From: a bacterium
Lineage (GTDB): Bacteria > Bacteroidota > Ignavibacteria > UBA10030
DNA length: 55,910 bases
Direction: 5' to 3'
Assembly: GCA_043803945.1 (NCBI GenBank)
Contig: JAZDJN010000086.1
Coordinates: 1 to 55,910, forward strand
The position numbers and the translations under genes are program-made. The notes below the pieces were generated by a model that was not told where the DNA came from, did not search any database, and was given only the letters and a program-made list of their open reading frames with translations. Shown here one piece after another: positions 6,817 through 53,503 of this stretch. Every line of letters starts with the position of its first letter. The first letter of the stretch is position 1.

Positions 6817-7218
6817 TAGAAGTGCTCCATGTAACAATTTTGTTGAAGGGAAAGAACAGAATTAAGTTACCACTGTTGCTGCAGGAAGGCAAGAGTGTTG
6901 TTGTGTATTGAATGTACATCATACGATTTACATGCTCCTCTAACCTCAGGCTTGCTGTTAGCATCGGAATCTTGTACTATTGTTAGAGAAATTTATGTCT
7001 CCGGCAAGAAACACTTCTACAATTGAAAGTATCAATCATAGATGCACCACTAGTACAAACGATGATGAATAAGATTCTTAACGGTTGATTTCACACATGT
7101 AATGGAAATGTAAGTTGAACAAGATATGAGGTTTGACTACATTTCAAACGATTACTGATTGGGATTTAAGGGCCATACCGTCGGCAACTGATTTGAAATA
7201 ATCTCACCGGATGTGTAA

Positions 7219-16916: not shown

Positions 16917-17189
16917 CTGATGACGGATATATTTGTAACAGAAGAATAAATAAGGATATCATAGTCCTTTGCGATGATATGACAATTAGAGAAAATGAAT
17001 GTGGAAGTAAAAAGCTAATCCCATCTCCAGCTTCGAATCCCCCCAATGATGAAGTGTGAAAGAAGTGCGTCAAGAATCCTTGGGAGAAATAGACTGGAAG
17101 CACTGTCCCTTCTTCCTGTCATATAAGGAGTTATCTCAGTGAAAATCCAATCTCAACCAATTCTGAAGTCATCCATAATTTATTTCACC

Positions 17190-31885: not shown

Positions 31886-31978
31886 GTGTCTCCATCATTG
31901 GGATCGCGAGTGTCATTTCTCGCAACACGATCACCGGAGGTGCTGCAGCCATGCTTACACTCTCCAGAACATCTTGTT

Positions 31979-36675: not shown

Positions 36676-38010
36676 TCAAAAAGTACCGTCGGCGCTAAGA
36701 CGGCTCCGGTAGCTGATATTGAGCGGAAGGGTTGCGCGGAGCATTGTGTTTGGATTCAGATACGCCAACTCATTGCGAAGACGTCGTGCGATTGATTGCC
36801 TCGAATAGAATTTGCTCAACACCCAGTCATGACCATCCTTGAGGACCTCGCGACCCATCCTATGCGGCTCAAACACAACATGGCGAAAGTCGTAATGTCC
36901 CCAGTTCTTGTCGACGATTCTTCCTTCCCGGTCCATTTCATCAAAGAGCGGTGTTCCCGGAAAAGGGGTCAGAATGGTCGCCTGAAGTACATCAACATTC
37001 GATGTGAGCAGGAATTCGAGTGTCCGAGGAAAGATCTCCGGTGTATCTGAATCGTTGCCAAAAACAATCGCTGCACAGACACTGATTCCCTTCAAATGGA
37101 TTTGTTTAATCACCCACGCATAGTCTTTGGCTCGATTGAAACTCTTGTTCCAGTCTTTTAGACCATCCTGAGAAAGTGATTCAAAACCCACAAAGAGCCC
37201 GCGGCAGCCGCTACGACGCGCAAGACTGAGGAGTTCATCGTTATAAGCAACCCTCGTACTGCATTGACTGAACCAAATCTTTCCGAGAGGAATCATCTTC
37301 TCAAAGAGGTCCTTGGCATAGTCGGCATCGGAGATAATGTTGTCGTCCATAAACAGCAGATACTTTCCGAGCTGCTTCAACTCTTCAATGACCTCATCGA
37401 CTGGTCGTGAACGGAATTTCTGTCCGAAAAAGGTCGAAATAGAACAAAATGTGCAGCGCTGCGGACATCCACGCGTTGCCTGAACAGTATCGACAACCGA
37501 ATAGGAGCCTTGCTTGATCAGGCCTCGATCGGGAACAGGGAGGCCTTTCAGATCAACCGTGCCATTCCGATAGATCCGGCTGAGTCTCCCAGCCATAAAA
37601 TCCTCAATCATACGGGGGACATTGTTCTCCGCTTCTCCAATGCAGACAGCATCTGCATGCCCAAGCACTTCCTCTGGCATGAAGGAAGGATGATATCCTC
37701 CGACGATGACTGGTTTGCTGCGATGGTTTCGGAATTCATCAGCAATCTCATACGCACGCGGGGCATTAAAGGTCATAAATGAAATACCGATAAGGTCGGC
37801 GTCTGTATCGAAGTCAATGGCCTCCACCTCTTCATCGACGATTCTTGTTTCGACAGAGGCCGGCATGGCGGCTGCCACATAGAGACTTGAGAGCATGGAG
37901 TAGCGAAAGATCTGTGTCTTTTTCAGAGGACCCTTTCCGGATGTAACTCGCCATTCCGGGGCCGTTGGATTGATTAAAAGAAATTTCAGCCGCTTATGCA
38001 TAGGTTCCAT
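36676..38010 (-). CDS. B12-binding radical SAM protein
   Basis: VGGYHPS, GEAE, TRGCPQRCTFC, DDN, GFES, TPFPGT; start 38010 (or 38001) preferred over 38085. Confidence 0.92.
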   Translation of the reverse strand: MEPMHKRLKFLLINPTAPEWRVTSGKGPLKKTQIFRYSMLSSLYVAAAMPASVETRIVDEEVEAIDFDTDADLIGISFMTFNAPRAYEIADEFRNHRSKPVIVGGYHPSFMPEEVLGHADAVCIGEAENNVPRMIEDFMAGRLSRIYRNGTVDLKGLPVPDRGLIKQGSYSVVDTVQATRGCPQRCTFCSISTFFGQKFRSRPVDEVIEELKQLGKYLLFMDDNIISDADYAKDLFEKMIPLGKIWFSQCSTRVAYNDELLSLARRSGCRGLFVGFESLSQDGLKDWNKSFNRAKDYAWVIKQIHLKGISVCAAIVFGNDSDTPEIFPRTLEFLLTSNVDVLQATILTPFPGTPLFDEMDREGRIVDKNWGHYDFRHVVFEPHRMGREVLKDGHDWVLSKFYSRQSIARRLRNELAYLNPNTMLRATLPLNISYRSRLSADGTF

Positions 38011-39370
38011 TCGAAGCCCGCTGTGGATGATTGCTGTGATGGTGGTGAAGTTCGAGCATCGCCTGATAATCAGTGCGCATCTCAAGATTGAAAAGGAAAA
38101 GTGTCGCTGCCGTCAATGGATTAATTCTCATCGAACGCCGCATAATCTCTCGATAGGATGTTAGGCGACGATAGAGTCGAAGAAATCCTGTTTCAGCCTC
38201 GTCAACCGACATAAGCTTCGGGAGGTAGAAACAATGACTGCACGCAGTGGCATAGCGTGCATTATTTTTCAGAAACTCCTCCTCGTTTTGAATAAGGAGC
38301 CGGCCCTCGTTCTTGAGCCGCTCAGAGGCTTTGGTGCCCGGTGCAGGAAGGAGCAAATTCAGAATGGGAAGCGCTATTCGGTTGTCGTGGATAAAATCGA
38401 ACAGGGTCTCAAACGTGTCGACCGTATCACCGTCGAGTCCCAGCATGAAGTAGCCGCCGACTTCGATTCCGGCATCACGTATACGGGCAATACGCTCCCG
38501 GTGGCGCGATACTGCATAGTATTTGTCAAACCCAGTGAGATTCTCCTGATTCAGCGTTTCGAGTCCCACGAGCAACATGATACAGCCCGATTCTTTGAGT
38601 AACCGAAGGAGCACCGGATCATCCCCGATATCGATCGTGCATTGAGCACCCCATCGAATGTTGAGATCCTCTTCGACGATGCGCAGGCAAAGACGAGCTA
38701 GGTACTCCCTATTATTGAAGATATTTGCATCACCGAATACAATATCACGTCCTCGCTTGCGCACGACATGGAGATCCGTCAGGACACATTCGATGTTGCG
38801 CAAACGGTATTGCCCCTTGCAGAGGGTCGCTGTACAACAGAAATCACAATTATTCCTGCACCCAATGCTTGTGAGAACAGGCATGAACTGCATCTCTTTG
38901 CCCTTCAGCACGGAATAGTCAAAGGGGAAGTTGACATGCAATCCGCCCTGGTACTCCGCCAAATGCTGACCGGTACATATATCGTTAAGAATCGTCTGCA
39001 TTTCTCGCCGACCGGGGCTGCCGTGTACGATGATGTCGCAAATTGTGCGGAGTCTCTCAATGCTGAAGCTTGCTTGGCTGCCGCCGAAGATCACGGTTTT
39101 CCCTCGCTTCCTGAATTCACGAGCGATCTCAATACCGTGGAGGAGATCATATCCCATCGAGGAAATACCGACAACCGATGCAGGAGAATCATAATCGACG
39201 TCATTGTAATACTCGATACAGAATGTCTTTTCCCAATCATCCGGAATGGTCGCGCTTAAAGCCGGAAGAGCCAACGAGCAGTAAGAGAGCTTCCTGCCTT
39301 TGAAGAGATCACCGTTTGGATTGCGGTAGGTCGGCTGAATGAGGTAGATTCTTTTCTCCTGTGGTTTCAT
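37994..39370 (-). CDS. B12-binding radical SAM protein
   Basis: IFGG, GCRNNCDFC, GLET, PAPGT; GGAG RBS upstream. Confidence 0.9.
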   Translation of the reverse strand: MKPQEKRIYLIQPTYRNPNGDLFKGRKLSYCSLALPALSATIPDDWEKTFCIEYYNDVDYDSPASVVGISSMGYDLLHGIEIAREFRKRGKTVIFGGSQASFSIERLRTICDIIVHGSPGRREMQTILNDICTGQHLAEYQGGLHVNFPFDYSVLKGKEMQFMPVLTSIGCRNNCDFCCTATLCKGQYRLRNIECVLTDLHVVRKRGRDIVFGDANIFNNREYLARLCLRIVEEDLNIRWGAQCTIDIGDDPVLLRLLKESGCIMLLVGLETLNQENLTGFDKYYAVSRHRERIARIRDAGIEVGGYFMLGLDGDTVDTFETLFDFIHDNRIALPILNLLLPAPGTKASERLKNEGRLLIQNEEEFLKNNARYATACSHCFYLPKLMSVDEAETGFLRLYRRLTSYREIMRRSMRINPLTAATLFLFNLEMRTDYQAMLELHHHHSNHPQRASNGTYA

Positions 39371-39750
39371 TGGCTCCTCCTTCGTGGGAGACCACCCTTG
39401 TATGGGTAACGACTGAAAGGATTACTTCTAAGCTATCACATTCAAGAATGAAAGGCAATGCTCGAGACAACGGGAATGCAGGGAACGATCGAAAGGCAGG
39501 ATGCATTGGATCTGAAGCAATTCCGGTTTGTGTTGCAGCATACTATTCAATAAATAATTTTCTGTATTAAACGCTCAGGGATTCATACAAAACACAGCGG
39601 TAATCTTGAATCACAAAGAAAAAAGAACTAATTAGGAGAGAATATTCTTATGCAATAAACGTTGAGTTCTCTCTCGAGAGACAGAATTCTTCCACAAGCA
39701 GTAGAAGATTTTCTCAGCATGGTTGCTTTAAAAATTCGGTTTGTGTCTCG

Positions 39751-40695
39751 ATGAATATGACTGATGTTATCTTCCATATCCAACGCTTCTCGCTTCATGA
39801 TGGTCCAGGTATCCGAACATCCGTCTTTCTTAAAGGGTGTCCGATGCGCTGTTTATGGTGCCACAATCCCGAAGGACAAAATTCCCAACCCGAGATTCGC
39901 TATTTTCCCGACCGCTGCATCGCGTGCGGGAACTGTGCCGCAGCGTGCCCGTACCATGCCCATGAGATGACTGACGGAAATCATGTCTTCCTCAGGGAAC
40001 GCTGCGAAGTGGACTTGTCTTGCGTCGAGACCTGTTACTCTCAGGCAATTCAGCTCAATGGTCGGTGTATGACAATTGAAGAGGTAATGGAAGAAATTGT
40101 GCGGGATCAAGCTTTCTATAACGCTTCCGGCGGCGGCGTGACATTGACGGGTGGTGAGCCGGCAATGAAGGGCGATTTTATAAGAACGCTCCTGCAACTC
40201 TGCAAGGAAAGAGGAATTCATACTGCCATTGAGACATGCGGTGAATACCCGTGGGCTGCCTTGGAAGAACTGTTACCCTTCATCGATTTACTAATGATGG
40301 ATATTAAGCAAATCGATGCCAGCAAACACCAGATGATCACAGGAAAATCAAACCGCCGTATTCTTTCGAACGCCCGTCGATTGGCGTCGACAAACAAGCC
40401 CATAATATTCCGCACACCGGTTGTTCCCACAGTGAATGATTCGGAAGAAGATATCAGAAAAATTGCATCGTTCATCCAAGAATTGATTGAAGGGCGGAAG
40501 AAGAACGTAATCCCTCAAAATGGAAACAATACTATCCAATATGAATTACTCGCTTTTCACAAACTCGCAGCCGACAAATATCTGAGTTTAGGATTGACAG
40601 ATCTTGCATCGGCCATCGAGCCGCCGACGAAAGAGAAAATGACGGAGCTGGTTCGTATCGTTCAACAGTATGGCATTGAAGCCAGATTTCGGTAA
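39751..40695 (+). CDS. glycyl-radical enzyme activating enzyme (radical SAM with ferredoxin-like insert)
   Basis: HDGPGIRT, KGCPMRCLWCHNPE, CIACGNCAAAC, TGGEP. Confidence 0.95.
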   Translation: MNMTDVIFHIQRFSLHDGPGIRTSVFLKGCPMRCLWCHNPEGQNSQPEIRYFPDRCIACGNCAAACPYHAHEMTDGNHVFLRERCEVDLSCVETCYSQAIQLNGRCMTIEEVMEEIVRDQAFYNASGGGVTLTGGEPAMKGDFIRTLLQLCKERGIHTAIETCGEYPWAALEELLPFIDLLMMDIKQIDASKHQMITGKSNRRILSNARRLASTNKPIIFRTPVVPTVNDSEEDIRKIASFIQELIEGRKKNVIPQNGNNTIQYELLAFHKLAADKYLSLGLTDLASAIEPPTKEKMTELVRIVQQYGIEARFR

Positions 40696-40732
40696 CGCTA
40701 TCAACAATAAAAATTGCAGAAGAGATTACACC

Positions 40733-42967
40733 ATGGCACAAACAGCAGTGCAGGAGTTAACATACCAGGAACGAGTTGATCGCCTCCGTGCAACCAAGAT
40801 GGTTCATACAGAAGAGAAATGGCGCGAGCTTGGCTCGTTCGACATGGATGACCTTCCCATTATGCTCCCGCCGCCTGAATCGAGGAAAGTAGTTCGTGTT
40901 GTGAGCGGTTCAGGGCTTATGATGGTAGACGCACTCTTCAAGGATTTTATTCCCAGGAGCAACCACCCGAGCGGAGGAATCTTCGGCGCTAGAGCTTGCG
41001 GTGAGAATTTCCGGGCTTTGCTCGAGATGCACCCTCCTTATATCGATCCCATGAGCTCGCTTGCGGGTGGCTACATGGTTCATTTTCTCGCATACCGCCA
41101 ACCGGCATGGAATCCTGACTTTGACTATTCTCATCTGCACGCAGACCATCAACGATATAAACTTCATCCCGGCATAGGTGCTGTTCAACATTTTTGTCAG
41201 GATGAAGCCATCGGCCTTTCCCTGGGTTGGGGTGGCATTCTCCAAAAGATTCAACATTACCGAACAGTGAATACCGATGAGGAGGCACAGGAACTGTACG
41301 ATGGTCTGGAGCATGTCGTACGGGGATTCCAAAACTGGATCGGGCATAATGCGAAGGCTGCCCGCGAAATGGCAACGCATGAAGAACATCCACAACTTCG
41401 TCAAAATCTTCTGGAGATGGCCGAGATCAATGAGAAGTTAGTGACTCAATCCCCGCAAACATTTCGAGAAGCATGTCAATGGATGTTGTGGTATCAGCTT
41501 GGTGGCAAGATGTACAACATGGGTGGATCGCTTGGACGGATCGATCAATTCCTCTTCCCCTTTTATGAGTGTGATAAGAAGAATGGTATCCTCACTGATG
41601 AAGAGACGATCTTCCACCTGTGTTGCCACTTTATAATGGATACAAGTTATTGTCAACTCGGTGGACCGGATGCCTTAGGCTGTGATACAACGAATGCTCT
41701 TTCCTATCTTGTGTTAGAAGCTATCCATCGATTGAAAGTGCCGGTGAATGTGGGCGTCAGTGTGGGAAACAATGTCGATCCGAATCTTCTGAGACGCGGC
41801 GTAGAAATTCTTTTTGAAGATAAGACCGGCATTCCCAAGTTCCTCGGAGTCGATCGGACGAGCGAAGGATTTGCCAGGAACGGTTATCCGATTGAACTCG
41901 GACGACAACGTGCATACTCTGGATGTCATTGGTGTGCAATCCCAGGTAGAGAGTATACGGTAAACGATTGTGTGAAAATCAATCTACCGAAGATTTTTGA
42001 AGTTGCATTCGAAGACCTGTTAGCCGACTCGACATGCAAACCAAGCGTTGCAGAATTATGGCGGCGGTACGAACAGCATCTCCGGCGTGCCGTGGAAGTG
42101 ATTGGGCAAAGCCTGGATTTTCACATCGATCATATGTATCAGGTATACCCTGAACTCCATCTCGACCTTCTCTGTTATGGCCCAATTGAAAAGGGGCGTG
42201 ATGCATCGCATGGCGGCGTGGAGTACTACAATCTCTGCGTTGACGGTGCAGGCCTTGCGACAATAGCGGATTCTTTTGCTGCTGTCGAGCAGCGCATCGA
42301 ACGCGAGAACAAACTCACCTGGGACGCGCTCAATCACCTTCTCACGACAGATTGGGCTGGAGAACATGGAGAGCAAGCCAGATTAATGATGAAAAGCATA
42401 CCTCGTTATGGAAGCGGCGGTTCGCGCGCGGATCATTGGGGCATTACTGTTTCAAAGACCTTTACCTCATTGGTAAAAGAGAAACCGACTCCCAAAGGAT
42501 TCAATATGATCCCCGGCATTTTCTCATGGGCTGCCAATGTTGCGATGGGGAAAGATGTGGGCCCGACACCGAACGGCCGGCATGCGAAGAGCCCCATTTC
42601 GCATGGACCGAATCCCGATCCCGGTTTTCGTAAAGATGCAGCTCCTACAGCTTTGGCATTGATCGTTGCCGCTGTCCAATCCGGTTTTGGAAATACGGCG
42701 CCGATGCAAATTGAACTTGACCCCGGCCTTTCGAGGAATAAGGAAGACATCGATAAGGTGATCGCCCTGATCAGGACACATTTTGATCTTGGCGGAACGC
42801 AGATCAATATGAACATTCTGAACAAGAAAAAGATTCTGGAAGCACAGAAAGATCCAGGCACACATCCGGATTTGGTTGTACGCGTCACCGGCTTCAGTGC
42901 CTATTTTGCCAGCCTCTCTCCTGAAATGCGGCAAGTGGTGGTGGATAGAATTATTAGTGAGGAGTGA
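40733..42967 (+). CDS. glycyl-radical enzyme (PFL superfamily), unknown reaction
   Basis: SLGRIDQ, YSGCHW Cys loop, TPNGR, LVVRVTGFSAYF Gly loop; follows its activase; ATG 40733. Confidence 0.92.
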   Translation: MAQTAVQELTYQERVDRLRATKMVHTEEKWRELGSFDMDDLPIMLPPPESRKVVRVVSGSGLMMVDALFKDFIPRSNHPSGGIFGARACGENFRALLEMHPPYIDPMSSLAGGYMVHFLAYRQPAWNPDFDYSHLHADHQRYKLHPGIGAVQHFCQDEAIGLSLGWGGILQKIQHYRTVNTDEEAQELYDGLEHVVRGFQNWIGHNAKAAREMATHEEHPQLRQNLLEMAEINEKLVTQSPQTFREACQWMLWYQLGGKMYNMGGSLGRIDQFLFPFYECDKKNGILTDEETIFHLCCHFIMDTSYCQLGGPDALGCDTTNALSYLVLEAIHRLKVPVNVGVSVGNNVDPNLLRRGVEILFEDKTGIPKFLGVDRTSEGFARNGYPIELGRQRAYSGCHWCAIPGREYTVNDCVKINLPKIFEVAFEDLLADSTCKPSVAELWRRYEQHLRRAVEVIGQSLDFHIDHMYQVYPELHLDLLCYGPIEKGRDASHGGVEYYNLCVDGAGLATIADSFAAVEQRIERENKLTWDALNHLLTTDWAGEHGEQARLMMKSIPRYGSGGSRADHWGITVSKTFTSLVKEKPTPKGFNMIPGIFSWAANVAMGKDVGPTPNGRHAKSPISHGPNPDPGFRKDAAPTALALIVAAVQSGFGNTAPMQIELDPGLSRNKEDIDKVIALIRTHFDLGGTQINMNILNKKKILEAQKDPGTHPDLVVRVTGFSAYFASLSPEMRQVVVDRIISEE

Positions 42968-43062
42968 TGGATTTCCCTTATTGGGAGTTCATCGAAGGGT
43001 TTGCCTGCAATTGACTTGAGGGATGGATCAGTATCATTCGAACAACAAGAGGATACAAGTCC

Positions 43063-44163
43063 ATGAGCACCTCATCACGACAACGATTCTTGTCTTACGT
43101 AAAGAATCCCGGTGCATCGTTGCCGGTGACCTCACCGTTTCTGCCTCATGCCGATGTGATCAAAGAGACTCTGATGTACTTGCATTTGCCCGTTATCGAT
43201 GATGCCGTGAAGAATGAAATCCGGCTTGCACAAGAACTTGCTTACCAGCCGATGTTCATGACCGATTGTTCCGGACTTATCTTCCATTGGCAGGTTGATG
43301 AATCTCGCTCAACACCAGAGAAGGCGTTTCGTGTTCTCTCCACGGCGAAAGGAGAGTGGACATGGAAATCGCCGCGAACGGAAATTCCCTGGAGTGACGA
43401 GGCTTGCTGCCCAGTGCGAACACTTCGCGACCACGAGCTGCTCATTGCCGTGTGTGAACAGGTTGCCGATCGTGAACAAGCGATTCGTGACTACTTCCGC
43501 AACTGGCGAAAGAATGTCGGAGAAGATGGTGTCATCGTATTGGGCCACCCGCATCCATCATGGCTTGGGTACCAGATTAATCCAACGAATATTATTTATC
43601 AATGGAATGACTGGCAGGAAGTTTTCATTCGAAGTATGGATGCTGTCTATGAAGCATCGTTATTGGTCATGTCAATTGCCGTGCAGGAAGGCATCGACTT
43701 CATGAGCGATTCCAGTTATGGCTTGGAGATGACTTCTCCCGAGCTTTTTGCATCGATGGATCTTCCGTATATCCGTAAGTTTGCAGACTGGACTCATCGT
43801 CATAATAGTTTATTCTGGTACCATAACTGCGGCTTCACTCATCAACTGATTAAGGATGGTGTCTTTAATACACTTGGGGCAGACGTGATCGAAACCATTG
43901 CGCCTCCGCCCGAAGGAGATAACGACCTGACAGAATCTCGAAGCTGCATCGATCGAAGCATTTGCACAAAAGGAAACCTCAACCTCCGTTTACTGCGGGA
44001 TGGAACAGCGGAGCAGATTCAATCAGAGGCCCGGAAGATGGTCGATGCCGTTCGCGGTTATGCGCATATTTATTCCACTGCCGATAGTGTGTTGCAGGGA
44101 ACGAAGCCAGAGAATTTTATCACATTTATACAAACGATTAATGACGCGCTTCAATCGTTATGA
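43063..44163 (+). CDS. uroporphyrinogen decarboxylase (UroD/MtaA-CmuA) superfamily protein
   Basis: SPELF..MDLPY, WYHNCG, PPPEGD, KGNL, T.PENF TIM-barrel pattern. Confidence 0.8.
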   Translation: MSTSSRQRFLSYVKNPGASLPVTSPFLPHADVIKETLMYLHLPVIDDAVKNEIRLAQELAYQPMFMTDCSGLIFHWQVDESRSTPEKAFRVLSTAKGEWTWKSPRTEIPWSDEACCPVRTLRDHELLIAVCEQVADREQAIRDYFRNWRKNVGEDGVIVLGHPHPSWLGYQINPTNIIYQWNDWQEVFIRSMDAVYEASLLVMSIAVQEGIDFMSDSSYGLEMTSPELFASMDLPYIRKFADWTHRHNSLFWYHNCGFTHQLIKDGVFNTLGADVIETIAPPPEGDNDLTESRSCIDRSICTKGNLNLRLLRDGTAEQIQSEARKMVDAVRGYAHIYSTADSVLQGTKPENFITFIQTINDALQSL

Positions 44164-44263
44164 GCATTCTCGGATCGGAATAAAAATAATGAGTGTTCCA
44201 TAAAGTCTCCAATCTCTGTCTGACTGAGACGATAACGTTGAACTCTTCAAAGAAGAACATCCT

Positions 44264-45547
44264 ATGAGAAAAATTCTCCTGTTTGCATTTCTCCTTTCAC
44301 TCTTGATTATCTCCTGTGGCAAAAAGAGCAGTGGTATTGAGCTCCAGGACTGGAATTTCGGGGGCCGGCCCAGGCTCATAGAGTGGCTTCGTGAACGAGT
44401 AACCTTGTTTGAAAAAACACACCCTGGAATTGCCGTGGCACAAAGCAACAAGAGCTGGAATATGATCAGGGAAATTCTCTTTGCTGAATTCAGTGCGGGG
44501 TCGGGTCCCGATGTGGTGAACACACATGCTAACTATTCTTCCGAGTTTGGCGAAGCGGGATATTACTACCCTGTCAACAAGTTTCCCGATTTCAAAGAAG
44601 TGCGGCAGTGGTATGTTCCGGAACTTCTGGAATCGACCCGGTACAAAGACAACTACTACGGGCTGCCCTCATCTGCAATCGCTTTTGTCCTTGTTTGTAA
44701 CAAAGAACTTTTTGATAAGGAAGGAATCGCCCCTCCGAAAACATGGTCTCAGTTCAGAGAGGCGGCAAAGCGGCTGACGAAAGACGCCGACCACGACGGA
44801 ACCGTGGATCAATACGGCCTCATACTGATGGGGGGTGATAAAGGAGGATTTGCTTATCGGACCATCCCCTTCTTTTTTAAGGCCGGCGCTGATGTGATGA
44901 CGGACGATCTGACAAAAATTGTGTTCAACTCGCCGCGGGGTATCGCTGCATTAAAACTTTTCGTCGATATGTATCAGGTTGACCACTCCATTTCTCCTGG
45001 GTTCCTTGCCTACACCCATACCGAGATCAATGATCTCTTCAGCAACAATAAAGTCGCTATGAGTATTGAAGGGCCATGGTTCCGGGGAATGGTTGGTGAT
45101 AAGAACGCTGGAAAAGATATGTATGTCGTACCGGTCCCCGTACCGGATGATAGACTCGATCAATATGATACGGCTCCAACGCTGCAGGATATCGTGATGT
45201 ATTCTATCAATGCCCGCTCGAAACATCTGAACGAAGCGTGGGAGTTACTGAAATTTTTACGCAACGAAGAAGCCGATATGGCCTGGATACGGGAAGACCT
45301 AGGGGCAACTGCCACAACGATCAAAGCGTTAAATAGTCCCGAAGCAAAAAACGTGAAAGACTTACCCGTGTACATCAACGAACTCAAGCATGCCCGTCCC
45401 TGGCCCTCGCATCCCGATATGATAGCCATTGCGAGTAATATCTTTACACCGTACTGTCAAAAAGCGATTGTGGGAGAATTATCTCCGAAGGCTGCGCTCG
45501 ACCAGGCGGCAAAAGAATCTCAGGATCTCATCGAAGGAAAGAAATGA
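44264..45547 (+). CDS. carbohydrate ABC transporter substrate-binding lipoprotein
   Basis: Lipobox LIISC; GPDV, YGLP, NKELF..G..PPKTW, KVAMSIEGPW. Confidence 0.92.
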   Translation: MRKILLFAFLLSLLIISCGKKSSGIELQDWNFGGRPRLIEWLRERVTLFEKTHPGIAVAQSNKSWNMIREILFAEFSAGSGPDVVNTHANYSSEFGEAGYYYPVNKFPDFKEVRQWYVPELLESTRYKDNYYGLPSSAIAFVLVCNKELFDKEGIAPPKTWSQFREAAKRLTKDADHDGTVDQYGLILMGGDKGGFAYRTIPFFFKAGADVMTDDLTKIVFNSPRGIAALKLFVDMYQVDHSISPGFLAYTHTEINDLFSNNKVAMSIEGPWFRGMVGDKNAGKDMYVVPVPVPDDRLDQYDTAPTLQDIVMYSINARSKHLNEAWELLKFLRNEEADMAWIREDLGATATTIKALNSPEAKNVKDLPVYINELKHARPWPSHPDMIAIASNIFTPYCQKAIVGELSPKAALDQAAKESQDLIEGKK

Positions 45548-46413
45548 AAAAAATCTTTCCTTACCTCCTTCTGCTGCCGGCACTGCTTTTTACAGCTCTG
45601 GTTCTTGTCTATCCATTGGTGCAGAATCTGATCAATAGTTTCAGCGATGTGAGCATGATCAAAGGGAACAAAGGTTGGATCGGGCTCCTCAACTATGTAC
45701 ACGTCTTCGAAGATAATCTCTTCTGGCTTGCATTCAAGAACACATCGCTCTATGCAATCGCAGGAACTCTGCTTGCGCTGCTCATTGGCCTGGGTTTCGC
45801 CCTTCTCCTTCATATAAAAACCAGCACGTTTAACACCGTTGCCGGTTTTCTTTATACTATTCCCTGGGTGGTTTCCCCCGTTGTTGCCGGCTTTGCATGG
45901 AAGTGGCTCCTCAACGATCACTTCGGTATTCTCAATCACTGGTTAGCAGGTGCAGGCCTCATCAGAGCCGGTACTCCATGGCTGGGAGATCCGCAAACCG
46001 CACTGTGGTGCGTGATGGTCGCAAGGATATGGCAGTTTTATCCCTTCGCCATGGTGATGTTTTTAGCGGCTCTTCACACTATTCCACTGGAACAATACGA
46101 AGCGGCTGCCGTCGATGGTGCCTCGATGCTCAGGAAGTTTTATCATATCACACTGCCGAATTTAAAATCGGTCTCCTCGGTCCTTTTAGTCTTAGGAGTG
46201 ATTTGGAGCTTCAACGATTTTAACATGATTTTTGTGATGACCCGCGGCGGACCGATGAACGCTTCGATGGTGCTGTCAGTGTTGGTAAGAGAATTCTCCT
46301 TCGTGCATTTCGATCTTGGAAAAGGTTCTGCACTTTCCATCCTTGTCTTCTTGCTGCTCATCTCCCTCTCCTCTCTCTACCTGAAGGTTTTATCTAGGAG
46401 GGAGTCTGTATGA
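45544..46413 (+). CDS. carbohydrate ABC transporter permease (MalF-like)
   Basis: GLLNY, YEAAAVDGA EAA loop, MTRGGP. Confidence 0.95.
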   Translation: MKKIFPYLLLLPALLFTALVLVYPLVQNLINSFSDVSMIKGNKGWIGLLNYVHVFEDNLFWLAFKNTSLYAIAGTLLALLIGLGFALLLHIKTSTFNTVAGFLYTIPWVVSPVVAGFAWKWLLNDHFGILNHWLAGAGLIRAGTPWLGDPQTALWCVMVARIWQFYPFAMVMFLAALHTIPLEQYEAAAVDGASMLRKFYHITLPNLKSVSSVLLVLGVIWSFNDFNMIFVMTRGGPMNASMVLSVLVREFSFVHFDLGKGSALSILVFLLLISLSSLYLKVLSRRESV

Positions 46414-47222
46414 AACGAGCCATGGTGGTTTGTGTAATGCTCCTGATCGCCTTTATTGTACTTCTTCCTATTCTCTGGATATTCTCCACTTCATTAAAAC
46501 CTCTGTCTGAAGTAACGAAATCGCCTCCGGAGTGGTTCAATCCTCATATGAGTCTGAAGCCGTACAGCGATATGTTTTTCTACCTTCCATTTTCAACATA
46601 CGCGTTGAACAGCTTTATTGTCGCTTCCGTATCGACCCTTCTGACACTCATTATCGGAAGCCTTGCGGCATTTGCTTTCTCCCGCTGTTACTTCAAAGGA
46701 AAAAATGCATTTCTGCTCATCTTTCTTCTTTCTCAGATGCTGCCGGGAGCTTCGGTCATTGTCCCATTATTCCAATTGCTACAGAAAGTTGGATTCTACG
46801 ATTCACATCTGGGACTCATTCTCATTCACACAGCCGTTCTTCTCCCTTTTGTGATTTGGCTGCTCTATGGATTTTTCAAGGAGATACCAAGAGAGGTGGA
46901 AGATGCAGCGTTGATTGATGGATGTTCAAGGATGGAAGCTCTCTGGAAAGTAATCCTTCCTCTTGCATTGCCAGGCATGGGTGCCACGGCGCTCTTTGCA
47001 TTTCTTGGTTCGTGGAATGAGTTTTTCTTCGCGTTGATCCTCACCAGCTCCGATGCAACGAGAACCATTCCGGTCGGTATAGGATTGTTTGTTGGAGAGT
47101 ATCAGGATGTTTGGAATCAAATGTCGGCAGCGGCAGTCCTTTTCAGTCTTCCTCCCTTGATCTTGTTTATGATCATGCGCAGAACCTTTGTGAAAGGATT
47201 GTCGGCCGGTGCACTACATTGA
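46410..47222 (+). CDS. carbohydrate ABC transporter permease (MalG-like)
   Basis: TSLK, EDAALIDGC EAA loop, WNEFF, FVKGLSAGA. Confidence 0.95.
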   Translation: MKRAMVVCVMLLIAFIVLLPILWIFSTSLKPLSEVTKSPPEWFNPHMSLKPYSDMFFYLPFSTYALNSFIVASVSTLLTLIIGSLAAFAFSRCYFKGKNAFLLIFLLSQMLPGASVIVPLFQLLQKVGFYDSHLGLILIHTAVLLPFVIWLLYGFFKEIPREVEDAALIDGCSRMEALWKVILPLALPGMGATALFAFLGSWNEFFFALILTSSDATRTIPVGIGLFVGEYQDVWNQMSAAAVLFSLPPLILFMIMRRTFVKGLSAGALH

Positions 47223-47565
47223 CCACCCTCCATCAAGCCGCTCCAGGGTTATAATAGGCAAGAATTGATTGCGCACACACGGTCAAGCATCCCATCGTAC
47301 TATCTTCTGATCAGCAAACAACGTCTTATAGACTGACAACTACAGCTTAACTTCGACCAATTCTTCTTTGACTACCTGGGCTTCCTTCATGCACCATGCC
47401 AGAAAGGTAAGGCGCGTGACTTCGGTCTTAGAGAGGTCATAGGGAAAGGAGGCTGAGAAATTCTTCTGATATCTTTGAGGGGGGTGGTGAAGACAATTTC
47501 AAGGTTAGAGAATAAGGAAAACCATTCAGACTCAGCAGCAATTGACCCGCCGATAGTGGAAAGAT

Positions 47566-49018
47566 CTACCGGAGATAGATCACCCGCCTCGTCTGCTTGT
47601 TTTGGTTATAGGATAGAACAATAAAATACGAGGAAGATGGAACGTCAGACGGCTGCCATGACAAACGATGGATTCCCACATCTTCGATTATTGAATCAAG
47701 CAGTGTGGTAACTTTCTTACCGAGAAGATTAAACACCTCGATCGTTACCCTTCCAGGTTCAAAGAGAGCAAAACTGAGATTGACTGAACCATTGAATGGA
47801 TTCGGGTAGGGCTCATGCAAATTAAATCCCCGGCTGATGGCTTCATAGTCTTCGGTGATACTGCGTTCAAATAGTCCGGTCGGTGCATTCGTTTCATAAT
47901 AGGGGTTTCCTAGTTCCGCCCATCGCCACGTCGAGAAGTCCGGCGCATGAATTACATTAATATCACAAGTCATGTGAAGTTTTCCATCTGCTCCATTCGG
48001 AAGTGTATTAGGTGTACCATTTTCCGTCACATACACAATACCCTGCCGTCCTGATGAATGTGCAACACCGACGTCCGGAAATCCTACCTCAACGATATAA
48101 TAACTATCGATGTAATGCTGCGCAAAATACGAATAGAACACTCCGGTCACCACATTTAATTTCCCATGATCTTTTAAGGAAAGAAGAATATCCATAGAGC
48201 TAACCACTCCTGGCACAAACGGTTTTGAATAGGGAGATTGATAGCCCGATGAACGCATATTGTGTGCCGTTACCGGAACATTGGTAAACGTGCGGCTTAC
48301 CGTGACTCTTCCAGAGTTCGACGGTTTGAATACTATTTCTGGCAGCCACAGCCAGAATGACATCGAACATCGAAAAGTATCCTTGAGCAAAGATATCTGG
48401 GCGTGCTGAAATAATCTTGTACTCTGAAGGAGTAAACACGATACCTGAGGATGGCAGGCCAGGCATCTCGACCTTCGAACCAGGAATCGGTAACGCTTGC
48501 GACCTACCACTGAGAACGCCGCTCGAAATGAGGTGTGTCAGGGATTGTGTTGCAGGAAAATGATAGCAGTGGGTGCATTCATTATCCGAAGGAATACTTG
48601 TATGATACTTTGGAAATACCGCTGTGCGTGTAGAGGATGTATTTCCTCCAGCACTATGGCAAGTATTACAGCCGGATTGATGAGGAATAGCATGCCACGT
48701 ACGGCTCGTAGCAGAGCCAATGGTTATTCGATAGACACCATCATCGATAAGTGAGGCGGCAATGTTGCCGTTGTTATCGGATCTATCAAGAACGGACAAC
48801 ATCCCGTTTGGCGATAGAAGCGAGACTGCAACTCCAGATTGTATAGTTCTTCCTGTACTGTCAGAATAAATTGTACCGCCAATTTTCAGGTGTGGATGGC
48901 ATTGAAGACAGTTGGCGCCGGGATTATGCGGAGATCGAGATGGTGTTGGACTGCCTGAACCAACCATTAAGAACAGCATGACACTACTGCTTATTAGCAA
49001 AAGACAACATTTTGACAT
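47566..49018 (-). pseudogene. frameshifted secreted multiheme c-type protein with T9SS-type CTD
   Basis: 5' frame: signal peptide, CLQCH, CNTCH, CTHCYH, RPDIFAQGYFSMFDVI; frame changes near 48330; 3' frame ends PYPNPFN..TRRVIYLR. Confidence 0.7.
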
Positions 49019-49870: not shown

Positions 49871-52768
49871 TTATTTCAGCATCATCATCCGCTTGGTAAA
49901 CGAATGCTCATCTGTTGTTAATGTGTAGAGATACATACCTGAAGGTAATTGTTCGCCAGGATCTGTCTTCCCATTCCACGTTACCGTATACGTTCCCGTC
50001 CTCAAGTTGCTTTTCAACAACGTCGCAACTCTTTGACCAACTAAATTATAGATGGTTAATATGACATTTTGTGATTTTGGAAGTGTGAAGGAGATTTGTG
50101 TCGATGGATTGAAGGGATTAGGATAGTTTTGTTCAAGAATATATCCCGTTGGCACATCCACCAAATTATTAATACTCGTTAAGATGGCTGGTGTGAGGAT
50201 AATAGAAATTGATGCGGCAGAAATATCCTTGGAGGTAGAAACAAATTGCTGGCCCGAATGATATTCAAATTTATCGATCACCACTGTATAGTTACCCGGA
50301 ATAAGCTCTGTGATAGAGAATGCCCCATCATCATCTGTTACGCTATAACCCGCGAGTTTGCCCTGCTCGTCGAGAGCGTACGCTAACGCTCCGGTGATCG
50401 GGTAGAGGTCTGTCCCTTTGCTGAGAGAGTTCAGGGAAGTACCAGTTTTTACCGAGCCAGCAATAGATGAATAATTTATTCCTGCGCCGGGGATTGGTTT
50501 GATAAAGATATTCACACCACTGACAATGTTCCCCTTGATCAGTATTCTCGCTGCTTTCTCCCAGTATAAGGTGCTTCCTGCTGTGTTATAGAACGCTGGA
50601 GTGAAGCGCCCTAATGGCATCGCAAAGACAAAATATTCTCCTGCCGGGAGATCAGAGAATTTATAATTTCCTTCTGCATCGGTATCTGTGCTGAAGGCTC
50701 CAGGTGTGGTTGAGGGATCTTGTCCCGAGAGACGACTCTTAAATAGAACGACCCGTGCTGTTACACCTTTTTGCGTGGTTGAATCGATTATTTTTCCTGA
50801 GATTATTCCAGTAGCGATTGACGGAATGAGCTTGAGGAGAAAATCAATCTTTGTGGTATCTTTTGTAAGTTTCAAAATATCAGCCGTGAGGAGATCCGGC
50901 TTATTATTATAGAACATCTTGTAATAATTTGTGGCGGATGCCATAATAGTGAACGAGGTCTGCGGCAGCCTGATCGAATATTCTCCGTTTACATTTGTCC
51001 TGACGGAAAAAACAAACTCCGATGTTCCATCAAGGCGAAAATCATTCCCGCTCGTTCCTATTGGATTTCCAACCGAAATATTACCCATTGAAATGGGATT
51101 GGTATTGCAATAATCGAAGAGTTCCTTTGCAGGATTTGTATCAATCGTCGATCCCTTAGCTCCATTCAAGCTGAAGCCTACGGTTGAGAAAGAGACTGTC
51201 GCTTCCTTAATCGGTTTTAAGTCTGAATCGACTACTTTCCCTGACACCATTGCGAAGAGGATAATGACGTTCGCCTTCATTTTGAAGTTAACAGTTGAAG
51301 TCAGGTTTTCCTGTACTTGAATCTTCGCAGCCTTTTCCACGCTTGTTGCACCATCATACCACTGCTCCAAATAGTCAGCAGTCAGCGGTACAGCGCGTGC
51401 ATAATAGACTCCCGTATCAACTTGTACAGAGTACTTTCCGAAGTCATCAGTGGCGACGCTGTATTGCGCAGACGATTGAGTTGAGATGCGATACAACTTC
51501 ACATTGATTTTCGGAAGAGCTTTTCCTGTCGAATCCGTCACGATCCCTGATAGAGTACCCGTGACACCGTTTATGGTAATGGAAAATCCTTGTTCTGCAT
51601 GGCCGCCTTTATTGGAAAAGACTACCAGGGAAACTTTAAATGTTCCTCGTTCGGGTGGTGTCCACTTGATCAAACCCGTTGCAGTATCAATGGTCATGTT
51701 GCGCGGCGTAGAAGAAAGTCGATAGGTGATTATCGCAGTCGGATCTGATGAAGCAGCGGTTACTTGATAGCTATAGGGAACACCCACTAAAGCGGTAAGT
51801 ACCGGTTGAGAAGTAATCGTCACCTTATCGATGACAATGACAATTTTCGGCTTGAGAATAAAGTTGATCGTTATTGTAGCATTTTCTTTAACTACGATCG
51901 GTGTCGCTTTTTCGAAACTCGCGGCACCATCATACCATTGTTGCAGGAGTTCACCACTCGGGGGAACAGCGACAGCAATGTATGTACCGGTATCTACTTT
52001 GCTGATCGTGTATTTGCCTAATTCGTCAGTGACACCTGAAAATTGAGGTGACATCTCTTTGATCTGCTTTACAACATACACAGAGATCCTGACCAGTGGT
52101 TTACCAAGAGAGTCGGTTACCATACCGCTTACTGTACCAGTGGGTCCGCCGATCGTGAGCGCAAAGCCTTGCTCCGCTCTGCCTCCTTTGTTTGAAGTGA
52201 CGAGGATAGAAACTTTAAATGTCCCTTTTTCCAGAGGAGTCCAGGTAATCAGTCCCAGTACCGTATCAATCGCCATCCCCCTGGGTGCCATGGTGAGATT
52301 GTATGTCAGCTTTGATGCAGGATTGCTTGATGCTGCAACGAGCTGGTAGCGATAGGACGTACCAAAAGAGACAATTAACGGAGATTGTGATGTGATTGTA
52401 ATTCGATCCGAAAAGTTCATAACAGCATATGAACTAAAACGGGCAGCCCCACTTTTCATCTTTGCATGAACCTGGTAAATCACCAACGGTTTTTCTGGCA
52501 GAAGGAGAGGTTGATCGGTAGCTGCTTTCGCAGTCGTAGAATCTATACGAACTAAATTTGTAACCGACGATTGTGTAACCGGTTGTTGAGTTCTGAAGAC
52601 GAGATAATATGCAACCGAATCGCCAAAGGTGTTTGTCCAGGTGAGACTCACCTTCCCGCCATCGATTTGTTTTGCGATGAGGGAAAAGTCCTTTTGGTTT
52701 TCCTGCGCTGGTAGTATAGAAATCCAGAGCGTGAGAAGAACGCAACACATGGCAAGGATTTTTTTCAT
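49871..52768 (-). CDS. large secreted Ig-like/carboxypeptidase-regulatory-like repeat protein with T9SS-type sorting domain
   Basis: Signal peptide MKKILAMCC; two cadherin-like (putative Ig) units, several G.VTDS.GKPL..TD..GKY units; EQNYPNPFNP..KRMMMLK. Confidence 0.85.
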   Translation of the reverse strand: MKKILAMCCVLLTLWISILPAQENQKDFSLIAKQIDGGKVSLTWTNTFGDSVAYYLVFRTQQPVTQSSVTNLVRIDSTTAKAATDQPLLLPEKPLVIYQVHAKMKSGAARFSSYAVMNFSDRITITSQSPLIVSFGTSYRYQLVAASSNPASKLTYNLTMAPRGMAIDTVLGLITWTPLEKGTFKVSILVTSNKGGRAEQGFALTIGGPTGTVSGMVTDSLGKPLVRISVYVVKQIKEMSPQFSGVTDELGKYTISKVDTGTYIAVAVPPSGELLQQWYDGAASFEKATPIVVKENATITINFILKPKIVIVIDKVTITSQPVLTALVGVPYSYQVTAASSDPTAIITYRLSSTPRNMTIDTATGLIKWTPPERGTFKVSLVVFSNKGGHAEQGFSITINGVTGTLSGIVTDSTGKALPKINVKLYRISTQSSAQYSVATDDFGKYSVQVDTGVYYARAVPLTADYLEQWYDGATSVEKAAKIQVQENLTSTVNFKMKANVIILFAMVSGKVVDSDLKPIKEATVSFSTVGFSLNGAKGSTIDTNPAKELFDYCNTNPISMGNISVGNPIGTSGNDFRLDGTSEFVFSVRTNVNGEYSIRLPQTSFTIMASATNYYKMFYNNKPDLLTADILKLTKDTTKIDFLLKLIPSIATGIISGKIIDSTTQKGVTARVVLFKSRLSGQDPSTTPGAFSTDTDAEGNYKFSDLPAGEYFVFAMPLGRFTPAFYNTAGSTLYWEKAARILIKGNIVSGVNIFIKPIPGAGINYSSIAGSVKTGTSLNSLSKGTDLYPITGALAYALDEQGKLAGYSVTDDDGAFSITELIPGNYTVVIDKFEYHSGQQFVSTSKDISAASISIILTPAILTSINNLVDVPTGYILEQNYPNPFNPSTQISFTLPKSQNVILTIYNLVGQRVATLLKSNLRTGTYTVTWNGKTDPGEQLPSGMYLYTLTTDEHSFTKRMMMLK

Positions 52769-53503
52769 TGAAAGTGACCCAATTGAAGTAAGAATACTCG
52801 TTGTTTTTCTAAACACCAATTTATATTTGTCATAGATGACAATCAATCGGAATTTCTGTATAGCCAAATAATATCGATTTATTGGGGGATTTTGAAAGCG
52901 GGAAAGGTATTTTCTTATGCTTCGTCAAAACTCTATTCGCGTACAAAATGCTGAATTCAAATTGAAATCGACACTTTTGTCCTGTGTCAATTATCAGGGC
53001 AAAGGCTCACATTATGAGATGTCTCCTATCGTTCTGTCTCGGATTCCTCAAATCAAGAATTCAATTGAGCATAGATAGAACAAGAAGAATCTTTAGTTCT
53101 TACTAGACTTGAGTACTGGCGGACTCGCGCCATTATTTCGTTTACGCTCGTATGTTGCTAATACTTACTGGAAGATGTAGGATAACCAAGGAAAATCTTA
53201 TCTATGATATAAACTTTATAAGTACCAAATTCGGTAAGTGGGTCATTTTCAATATCATCCACTCAGTGGATGCTAATCCATCAATATATAGTTGATTCTT
53301 GCAACAGGGCCAAGCTTGATTATCATCAGGTCAATTCGTACTATTTCTCAATTCTGATAGAGGGAACTGCGCAAATTGCATTCTCCTTGATCAATCATGC
53401 AAGAAGGAGGCAAAATACTCGTGTTGCCAACATAAAAGATTCGTCACTCCCCCGCGAATAATTGACACCATGATACAGCAGATGCCGCTTCATATCGATA
53501 TCT

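Follow-up and report, generated by a model that had tools for sequence, protein, structure and literature searches.

A stretch of 55,910 nucleotides from an Ignavibacteria genome (contig JAZDJN010000086.1; hereafter the window, to which all position numbers refer) encodes, within 39751-47222 on the forward strand, an enzyme of the glycyl-radical type (GRE) which is new in two respects: it is clearly a GRE, but it has a different catalytic loop and a new obligate partner. Judged from its sequence, it belongs to a monophyletic, uncharacterized superclade of sugar-associated GREs in which the loop around the catalytic cysteine reads Cys-x-Trp; the partner is a protein with the UroD/MtaA fold, encoded by the next gene. 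In our view these genes probably (about 0.6) belong to an operon for breaking down a carbohydrate-like compound that the cell imports; a modified mono- or disaccharide is the likeliest candidate, and the GRE would act on it by radical C-O cleavage or isomerization. Protein families were assigned with Pfam and NCBIfam profile scans, solved relatives were sought with phmmer, and folds were compared using AlphaFold2 (AF2) models and Foldseek; residue numbers for the GRE count from the start of its longest open reading frame (ORF) at 40670.

The Cys loop and phylogenetic position of the GRE

The GRE (40733..42967, +) matches the Pfam families PF02901 (PFL-like, 280.8 bits) and PF01228 (Gly_radical, 49.7 bits). 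A previous reading of the window from its letters alone (the sequence-only reading) had described an intact glycine loop and a non-canonical cysteine loop, and both are present: RVTGF, which fits the RVxG[FYW] motif of GREs and contains Gly741, spans 42881-42895 (residues 738-742), and GCHW, which contains Cys419, spans 41921-41932 (residues 418-421) within YSGCHW at 41915-41932. Other landmarks are PGREY at 41942-41956 and His174, located within 41183-41194. The AF2 model, built from a 30-row alignment, has a pLDDT of 93.7 and a pTM of 0.93, and Foldseek superposes it over its full length on PflD (query-normalized TM-score (TMq) 0.83), propanediol dehydratase (0.83) and glycerol dehydratase (0.82), with sequence identities of 19-21%. 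The N-terminus had also been called atypical. This is true of its sequence, as residues 1-172 lie outside the Pfam and NCBIfam matches, but not of its predicted structure, in which the whole chain folds with the high confidence given above and superposes on full-length GREs. The model is thus that of a complete GRE whose N-terminus is divergent in sequence and not in fold.

In the phmmer alignment the GRE segment ...YSGCHWCAIPGREY... lies opposite ...VVGCVELSIPGRTY... of PflD, and opposite the Cys433-Val-Glu435 loop of glycerol dehydratase (1r8w). GCHW aligns with the GCVE of both PflD (8yjo) and glycerol dehydratase, placing His420 opposite Val and Trp421 opposite the catalytic Glu. According to the available sections of a June 2026 review, all C-O, C-N and C-S eliminases and three isomerases keep a CXE motif, whose Glu, two residues after the catalytic Cys, is hydrogen-bonded to the substrate and acts as the base on its hydroxyl (PMC13450708). 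The same sections report this Glu to be catalytically essential in CutC and IslA, assign two cysteines in the Cys loop to pyruvate formate-lyase (PFL) and TdcE only, describe whole GRE clades as still unvalidated and name no Cys-x-Trp enzyme (PMC13450708). The GRE of the window has neither signature: Trp421 occupies the Glu position of the CXE motif, and the loop lacks the adjacent Cys-Cys pair of PFL (G-C-H-W as opposed to IACCVS in E. coli PflB). Further glycerol dehydratase residues do have counterparts in the phmmer alignment, with His164, Ser282 and Asp447 corresponding to His174, Ser287 and Asp433 of the GRE. We take Asp447 to be hydroxyl-binding, and the review gives His164 the role of an acid (PMC13450708).

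The best solved relative of the GRE is PflD (8yjo), with an E-value of 1.7e-53 and ~21% identity. Every NCBIfam GRE equivalog, covering PflD-type formate acetyltransferase, HypD, HpsG, HpfG, CutC, indoleacetate and hydroxyphenylacetate decarboxylases and PFL, scores between 83 and 214 bits where 994-1150 are required. The PFL2-3 subfamily model, although broad, also stays short of its cut-off (263.6 of 678.2 bits). By these scores the protein belongs to no characterized GRE family. Close homologues, where they are named in public records, are called pyruvate-formate lyase or formate C-acetyltransferase, which would make the enzyme a PFL. The loop and the family scores rule this label out: there is a single loop Cys where PflB has two, the score with the PFL equivalog TIGR01255 is 82.9 bits where 994.2 are required, and PflB is also the most distant row in the trees described below. 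PFL is the sole rival explanation that, on this comparison of sequences, we regard as effectively excluded.

A word-indexed search with the GRE returned 2084 proteins at E ≤0.001 among 8000 scored candidates, and the best 120 of these are 72-100% identical to it. A scan of one genome per species identified 46 related loci, in assemblies labeled Ignavibacteria, Bacteroidota, KSB1, Chloroflexi/Anaerolineae and Planctomycetota. The GCHW loop is not a chance feature, because it is found in 44 of the 45 loci that cover this region, the remaining one (L041) carrying GCNW. Two loci (L043 and L045) considered as a distinct 42%-identity clade with the same operon were rejected, since they are frameshifted copies of the same Cys-His-Trp family. 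An exhaustive search of representative proteins gave 4852 hits at E ≤0.001, with 81 full-length proteins among the top 150; 24 of these 81 representatives (of 50% identity clusters) have a Cys-x-Trp loop, with His, Asn, Gln, Phe, Gly or Pro as the middle residue. The other 57 reached no NCBIfam equivalog cut-off; as no representative could be named in this way, E. coli PflD, YbiW and PflB were used as tree anchors.

In a FastTree phylogeny of 101 rows, all 40 Cys-x-Trp rows form one clade with an SH-like support of 100, apart from 52 Cys-x-Glu rows that include E. coli PflD and YbiW. In a 45-row IQ-TREE analysis (LG+G4, short search) the 24 Cys-x-Trp rows all lie on the same side of a branch whose SH-aLRT value is 98, and PflB is the most distant row in both trees. 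Assemblies with members of the clade derive from soil, fen, sediment, digester, rumen and human gut. Residue conservation across the 101-row alignment, compared between the two loop types, is as follows:

His174: 37 of 40 Cys-x-Trp rows; 51 of 52 Cys-x-Glu rows
Cys419: 40 of 40 Cys-x-Trp; 52 of 52 Cys-x-Glu; invariant across all 101 rows
Position 421: Trp in 40 of 40 Cys-x-Trp; Glu in 52 of 52 Cys-x-Glu
Position 428: Glu in 38 and Gln in 2 of 40 Cys-x-Trp; variable (Ser, Glu, Thr, Ala) in the 52 Cys-x-Glu
Tyr429: 37 of 40 Cys-x-Trp; variable in Cys-x-Glu
Asp433: 40 of 40 Cys-x-Trp; 13 of 52 Cys-x-Glu

The clade has thus retained the eliminases' acid and their hydroxyl-binding residue, whereas the base at Cys+2 is gone and a Glu particular to the clade is conserved at Cys+9. 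The family scores, the two trees and the ~21% identity to PflD all indicate that the GRE does not cluster with a characterized enzyme and, together with the CXE rule of the review, they support the proposal of the sequence-only reading that its chemistry differs from that of the GCVE-type eliminases. In the parts of the literature that we could consult, neither the clade nor a Cys-x-Trp loop was found described, and nothing turned up on a GRE that has a UroD-like partner or on anaerobic sugar demethylation; published GRE similarity networks may already show this cluster as an unannotated node.

The same genome encodes a second GRE (L047, C106:12546-15809), a protein of 786 aa with the canonical Cys-x-Glu loop TSGCVETG, which groups with the Cys-x-Glu enzymes. 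It has a strong PFL-like Pfam score without the Cys-Cys pair of PFL, and its own activase, which is 37% identical to the activase encoded at 39751..40695.

The operon and its UroD/MtaA-fold protein

Six co-directional ORFs, closely packed or overlapping, make up one operon at 39751-47222 (+):

39751..40695 (+): radical S-adenosylmethionine (SAM) GRE activase, 314 aa; TIGR02494, 343.7 bits; Pfam Radical_SAM and Fer4 families
40733..42967 (+): GRE, 744 aa from M22 (longest ORF 40670-42967); PFL-like and Gly_radical, scores as above
43063..44163 (+): UroD/MtaA-fold TIM-barrel protein, 366 aa; Pfam URO-D, 49.2 bits, residues 185-360 only
44264..45547 (+): CUT1-type extracellular solute-binding lipoprotein, 427 aa; SBP_bac_1, 134.6 bits
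45544..46413 (+): ATP-binding cassette (ABC) permease 1, MalF/UgpA/GlcT-like; Pfam BPD_transp_1
46410..47222 (+): ABC permease 2, MalG/UgpE/GlcU-like; Pfam BPD_transp_1

The GRE probably starts at M22 (nt 40733), because its best 120 homologues are 736-764 aa long and their alignment begins at about residue 22; with this start the overlap with the activase gene disappears. The activase has a CxxxCxxC motif at nt 39838-39861 and a ferredoxin-like two-cluster insert, and it clears the TIGR02494 cut-off of 174.35 bits, while none of the substrate-specific activase equivalogs of NCBIfam reaches its cut-off. A scripted count found an activase homologue upstream of the GRE in 34 of the 40 related loci with at least 1 kb of upstream sequence; the locus table adds one for L007, and in L030 the activase gene sits downstream of the GRE.

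AF2 predicts the UroD-like protein to be a TIM barrel (pLDDT 89.4), for which the Foldseek matches are Methanosarcina mazei MtaA (4ay7; E 8.9e-13, TMq 0.65), human UROD (TMq 0.69) and then cobalamin-independent methionine synthases. It shares the predicted fold of MtaA/CmuA and uroporphyrinogen decarboxylase, and has an H-x-C-G motif in the same strand as the MtaA-like paralogues of its own genome, but differs in that the Pfam match is confined to the C-terminal half, no corrinoid gene is adjacent, and the MtaA/CmuA models of NCBIfam score far below their cut-offs (TIGR01463, 32.3 vs 235.4 bits; NF004889, 37.4 vs 244; NF040654, 26.5 vs 400). The HemE model is absent from its NCBIfam matches. 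These profile scores place the protein outside both the MtaA/CmuA and the HemE families.

Among 23 aligned relatives, F65, W76, W99, D216, S225, P226, P235, H254, G257 and E350 are invariant, and many residues, including H162, H164, C256, E277, C301 and D341, are at least 90% conserved. The sequence-only reading had proposed a UroD/MtaA-like barrel with an HNCG metal motif; the fold match and the near-invariant H254 and C256 back this assignment, and the motif is located at 43822-43833. The H-x-C-G strand is common to 11 of the 15 other URO-D paralogues of the genome. In the column where two of the strongest of these paralogues have their distal Cys, the UroD-like protein has Asp341, with Cys301 and Glu277 conserved instead. 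A metal site formed by H254-x-C256, E277 and either C301 or D341 is a plausible candidate. The zinc sites of MtaA and MetE serve as the comparison here, the MtaA pattern being H-x-C plus a distal Cys.

The distribution of their genes suggests that the two enzymes are coupled. In a tblastn survey of the 46 related loci, the UroD-like gene lies directly downstream of the GRE in 30 of the 42 loci with enough sequence, and it is followed, as here, by a binding protein and two permeases in 27 of the 36 loci with at least 5 kb downstream. We also surveyed 151 sampled genomes of the same class (GRE at E ≤1e-150, UroD-like orthologue at E ≤1e-80). The GRE occurs in four of them, including the source genome, which belong to four different families, and in none of the seven other sampled genomes of the source genome's own family. 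The UroD-like orthologue is found in exactly the same four genomes; it is the next gene after the GRE in the source genome and in two of the other three, and lies ~1.2 kb away in the third. From this patchy co-occurrence it follows that the operon is an accessory module in which the two enzymes travel together.

At least 15 further UroD/MtaA-like paralogues are encoded elsewhere in the genome, many beside carbohydrate genes, at loci such as C82:23000-38000 (L147), C47:2600-15900 (L150), C87:232000-241800 (L149), C92:7000-16500 (L155), C73:30300-41900 (L154), C114 (L156) and C40 (L148). Their neighbors encode glycoside hydrolases (GH67, GH115, GH43, GH88, GH9, GH38, GH123 and GH29), CUT2 sugar ABC components, SSF and MFS sugar transporters and PfkB kinases. 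One paralogue adjoins an MtaB homologue (527.6 bits) and another a corrinoid protein and a methionine-synthase-type reactivation domain. The operon itself encodes no cognate corrinoid protein, and two small corrinoid proteins are encoded on C92 and C99. The paralogue set looks like a corrinoid-dependent methyl-transfer system tied to sugar use, possibly for the demethylation of methylated sugars; the literature accessible to us yielded nothing on such a system.

The importer predicted by the sequence-only reading is borne out as a CUT1 type, with an SBP_bac_1 binding protein and two MalF/MalG-type permeases, but its description of the cluster as a UroD-like and sugar-ABC operon holds only in part, since no ABC ATPase gene is present. 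The binding protein begins with a lipobox-like LLIISC, read by eye. Its best solved relatives are 9xf5 (6.3e-35) and 5ci5 (8.5e-34), followed by binders of maltose, trehalose and arabino-oligosaccharides, and all NCBIfam equivalogs are far below cut-off. Permease 1 scores 124 bits with UgpA and 92 bits with MalF, and permease 2 scores 161 bits with GlcU and 107.5 bits with MalG, in each case below cut-off. The system is thus like the MalEFG/UgpBAE importers in having an SBP_bac_1 lipoprotein and two BPD_transp_1 permeases (MalF/MalG, UgpA/UgpE, GlcT/GlcU-like), and differs from them in the missing ATPase gene and in its low equivalog scores. The sole UgpC/MalK-type ATPase above cut-off in the genome, at C38:33583-34686 (497.5 vs 432 bits), could power it.

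The flanks of the operon, with two radical SAM genes on the upstream side and cargo proteins of type IX secretion on the downstream side, are not conserved in the related loci. The upstream genes, 36676-38085 (-) and 37994-39370 (-), overlap each other and are divergent from the operon, and one has a B12-binding domain; they were considered as operon members and rejected, as a homologue occurs in 0 of 46 related loci, and are probably unrelated to the GRE. An Rfam scan of the entire window found no family at gathering score, and so gives no riboswitch clue, and a scan of 39200-47700 for promoters and terminators gave sites at or below shuffle level (7 vs 11.7 expected and 7 vs 7.5 expected). 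The sequencing-run search, which has no bearing on expression, returned one DNA run with 0.06 of the sampled words and no RNA run.

Gene contexts and candidate substrates

Clustering of all neighboring ORFs showed a seventh conserved gene: downstream of permease 2, 14 related loci encode a PfkB carbohydrate kinase-HAD hydrolase fusion of ~630 aa (for example L003:14400-16370), which is weakly heptose-7-phosphate kinase-like (127 bits vs a cut-off of 345). The gene is not in the window; a 62%-identical orthologue is encoded at C55:12117-14030 of the same genome, where it adjoins a psicose-epimerase-like barrel (128 bits, cut-off 300) and an MFS transporter that scores above the L-lactate transporter cut-off. 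A kinase in this position would suit an isomerase that opens the ring of free anhydro-sugars and would be the equivalent of PflD and YbiW for ABC-imported substrates, with phosphorylation after ring opening. PflD and YbiW open 1,5-anhydro-hexitol 6-phosphates. They are, like the enzyme described here, sugar-active GREs with an adjacent activase and sugar transporter, PflD is the best match in both sequence and fold, and an ether-type substrate could make the hydroxyl-deprotonating Glu dispensable. However, the two E. coli enzymes keep the CXE motif, with the Glu acting on the C2 hydroxyl (PMC13450708), take sugar phosphates derived from the phosphotransferase system and sit with the Cys-x-Glu enzymes on both trees, whereas the GRE of the window, at ~21% identity, has Cys-His-Trp, an ABC importer and a UroD-like partner, to which the anhydro-sugar explanation gives no role. 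We regard it as improbable.

More distant Cys-His-Trp members (58-69% identity) lack the adjoining importer and UroD-like gene and occur amid sugar genes. Three of these loci have the following neighbors:

L030: GFO/IDH/MocA oxidoreductase, xylose-isomerase-like barrel, split transketolase, GlpK-like kinase
L031: two sulfatases, two URO-D proteins, PF12831 flavoprotein, HpcH aldolase, aldehyde:ferredoxin oxidoreductase
L041: PfkB kinase, binding protein and permeases, D-lyxose/mannose isomerase, two class I aldolases, aldehyde:ferredoxin oxidoreductase

The split transketolase, kinase and xylose-isomerase-like barrel of L030 have a passing resemblance to a D-apiose route; the kinase scores as GlpK-like.

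Some of these contexts fit an ordinary GRE dehydratase or eliminase with a small polyol or diol as its substrate (a short sugar alcohol, glycerol or 1,2-propanediol). It would follow the standard mechanism with another residue in the role of the Glu, and the UroD-like protein would have only a loose relation to the reaction. One Chloroflexi member lies by the gene for a GlpK-like kinase (586.5 bits; subfamily cut-off 498), two members have an aldehyde:ferredoxin oxidoreductase gene nearby, as would suit an aldehyde product, and the permeases resemble UgpA/UgpE. The known 1,2-eliminases (glycerol and propanediol dehydratases, CutC, HypD, HpsG and IslA) share the ten-stranded barrel (TMq 0.76-0.83), with PflD, propanediol dehydratase and glycerol dehydratase the nearest structures (0.82-0.83); the His164, Ser282 and Asp447 equivalents are kept, and the activase type, which has a ferredoxin-like insert, is shared. 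Set against this, all characterized eliminases keep the CXE motif, including CutC and IslA, where its Glu is essential (PMC13450708), and this residue is an invariant Trp here. The GRE is also far below every dehydratase cut-off (173-214 bits against 1000-1109 for the 1,2-eliminase models), it falls in a separate clade, and genes for a microcompartment shell or an aldehyde dehydrogenase are absent from the operon. Nor would a small polyol account for how strictly the GRE and the UroD-like gene co-occur, and we consider the small-polyol explanation unlikely.

An acidic sugar (sulfoquinovose, a uronic acid or a branched sugar acid) is another conceivable substrate, with the GRE as a C-S lyase or decarboxylase and the UroD-like protein as a decarboxylase. 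GRE sulfolyases and decarboxylases exist, and UroD itself is a decarboxylase. The PfkB kinase, isomerase and class I aldolase of L041 and the split transketolase of L030 presumably resemble sulfoglycolysis-type routes, and sulfatase genes lie beside L031 and L074. However, Arg672 of HpsG, one of the arginines that bind the sulfonate (PMC13450708), is aligned with Gly616 of the GRE, for which reason the idea was down-weighted; the binding protein matches SmoF, which binds sulfoquinovosyl-glycerol, only weakly (1.4e-8), and the H-x-C motif of the UroD-like protein is typical of the metal-dependent branch and not of UroD. The acidic-sugar alternative is therefore very improbable in our view.

For the sister clade with Cys-Asn-Trp loops, 507 metagenome stretches with a relative were found and 80 loci kept (L067-L146), and the neighbors in 14 of the 80 were scanned against Pfam. 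The clade is common in metagenome assemblies, one record being titled human gut metagenome. The scanned loci are polysaccharide utilization loci with SusC/D pairs, glycoside hydrolases (GH28, GH92, GH43, GH115, GH38 and alpha-L-rhamnosidase), BNR sialidase-like proteins, SASA esterases, sulfatases, and sugar-porter MFS and SSF-NanM transporters, together with DHDPS-type lyases, GFO/IDH/MocA oxidoreductases, KDPG aldolase and AraC and GntR regulators. In a recurrent trio, a RhaT-type L-rhamnose symporter (461 bits vs an equivalog cut-off of 369) comes two genes after the GRE, the third member being an unannotated ~141-aa protein, and some loci pair the GRE with NanM-SSF transporters, DHDPS-type lyases and sulfatases; examples of sister-clade loci are L130:9001-12605, L124 and L074.

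GH67 and GH115 release 4-O-methyl-glucuronic acid. A further candidate reaction is the oxygen-independent removal of an O-methyl or other alkyl or ether group from a sugar by the GRE and the UroD-like protein jointly. In its favor, the fold of the UroD-like protein is that of MtaA and the H-x-C motif is present; its 15 other paralogues lie beside GH67, GH115, GH43, GH88, GH38 and GH29 genes, sugar transporters, PfkB kinases, the MtaB homologue and a corrinoid protein; and sister-clade GREs also lie beside GH115. In the literature accessible to us, the sole sugar demethylation found is an oxygen-dependent P450 route. Counting against such a pair, the operon encodes no corrinoid protein or methyl acceptor, the UroD-like protein is far below the MtaA cut-offs with Asp at the third-Cys position of two of the strongest URO-D paralogues, and what favors the idea is purely contextual. 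We also know of no chemical precedent for ether cleavage of sugars by a GRE. Joint demethylation is thus a tentative idea with a small chance of being correct.

Outside the operon, carbohydrate- and secretion-type genes occur in the window at 4753-6837 (-), 17139-20720 (+), 29255-34405 (+), 47566-48510 (-) and 49871-52867 (-). They include a GxGYxYP putative glycoside hydrolase, a GH141-like beta-helix protein, a Reg_prop/Y_Y_Y sensor-like protein and three proteins with type IX C-terminal sorting domains, a gene content that suits a Bacteroidota/Ignavibacteria bacterium able to degrade polysaccharides. Genes of restriction-modification and defense type run from 793 to 26224 and comprise a Vsr endonuclease with a C-5 cytosine methylase, a UvrD-like helicase with a PD-(D/E)XK nuclease, an N6/N4 methylase with a ResIII-endonuclease protein, an ORF6N protein, and a second C-5 methylase by a double HATPase protein. 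The G+C content is 0.35-0.39 across the first 4 kb of the window, compared with ~0.47 elsewhere.

Proposed reaction and its implications

The sequence-only reading had placed the operon in an anaerobic pathway for a modified sugar, polyol or glycoside. The gene contexts described above fit such a pathway, which we, too, infer from them. By homology, the substrate would enter through the CUT1 importer, and the glycyl radical would be placed on Gly741 by the radical SAM activase. The radical would then pass to Cys419, and the resulting thiyl radical would abstract a hydrogen from the carbohydrate, held in part by stacking of Trp421 on the sugar ring and by Asp433, with His174 as the acid on the leaving oxygen. 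Trp421 occupies the position of the catalytic-base Glu, and we therefore propose a C-O cleavage or isomerization in which the base has either been relocated to the clade-specific Glu428 or is not needed, as the oxygen on the attacked carbon would belong to an ether and not to a hydroxyl. An obligatorily coupled second step would fall to the UroD/MtaA-fold protein, which is probably a metal enzyme, and the PfkB kinase-HAD fusion encoded elsewhere in the genome would then phosphorylate the product and feed it into central metabolism.

Several observations weigh against the assignment of the operon to an imported, modified sugar. Everything beyond the GRE, its activase and a sugar-type importer is deduced from context, and the roles given to Trp421 and Glu428 are proposed from their positions in the sequence. 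The likeness of the binding protein to sugar binders is at the level of the family, and CUT1 importers also take non-sugar ligands such as glycerol-3-phosphate. The UroD-like gene is not beside the GRE in 12 of 42 loci, one of which (L019) otherwise has the same operon. Only 3 of the 80 sister-clade loci contain a gene of the URO-D family, and the coupling therefore does not extend to the superclade as a whole. The neighbors of the distant members differ among themselves, and substrates within the clade may differ accordingly. The trees were inferred by fast methods without bootstraps, and the loop columns were included in the alignment (~3 of ~700).

A bolder proposal is that the Cys-x-Trp GREs are a new mechanistic class, in which the GRE and a metal-dependent MtaA-fold partner remove an ether-type sugar modification without oxygen and without an operon-encoded corrinoid protein, the leading candidate being an O-methyl group, as in 4-O-methyl-glucuronate or methylated hexoses and deoxyhexoses. 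We hold this to be an outside chance. If it were true, the 15 MtaA-like paralogues beside glycoside hydrolases, with the MtaB homologue and the corrinoid proteins, would constitute a parallel, corrinoid-dependent sugar-demethylation system.

Strict anaerobes carry out chemically demanding bond cleavages mainly by means of GREs, and each GRE studied so far that cleaves sugars, diols, amines or sulfonates relies on Cys-x-Glu, where a whole, well-supported clade has Trp. The compact operon, with a binding protein of its own, is a concrete entry point for ligand fishing. The PFL labels carried by homologues mean that metabolic reconstructions of peat and soil Ignavibacteria-like genomes, and of those from fen and sediment, may over-count formate-producing fermentation. 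Taken together, the position of the clade amid sugar uptake and polysaccharide utilization loci implies an undescribed radical reaction in anaerobic carbohydrate turnover.

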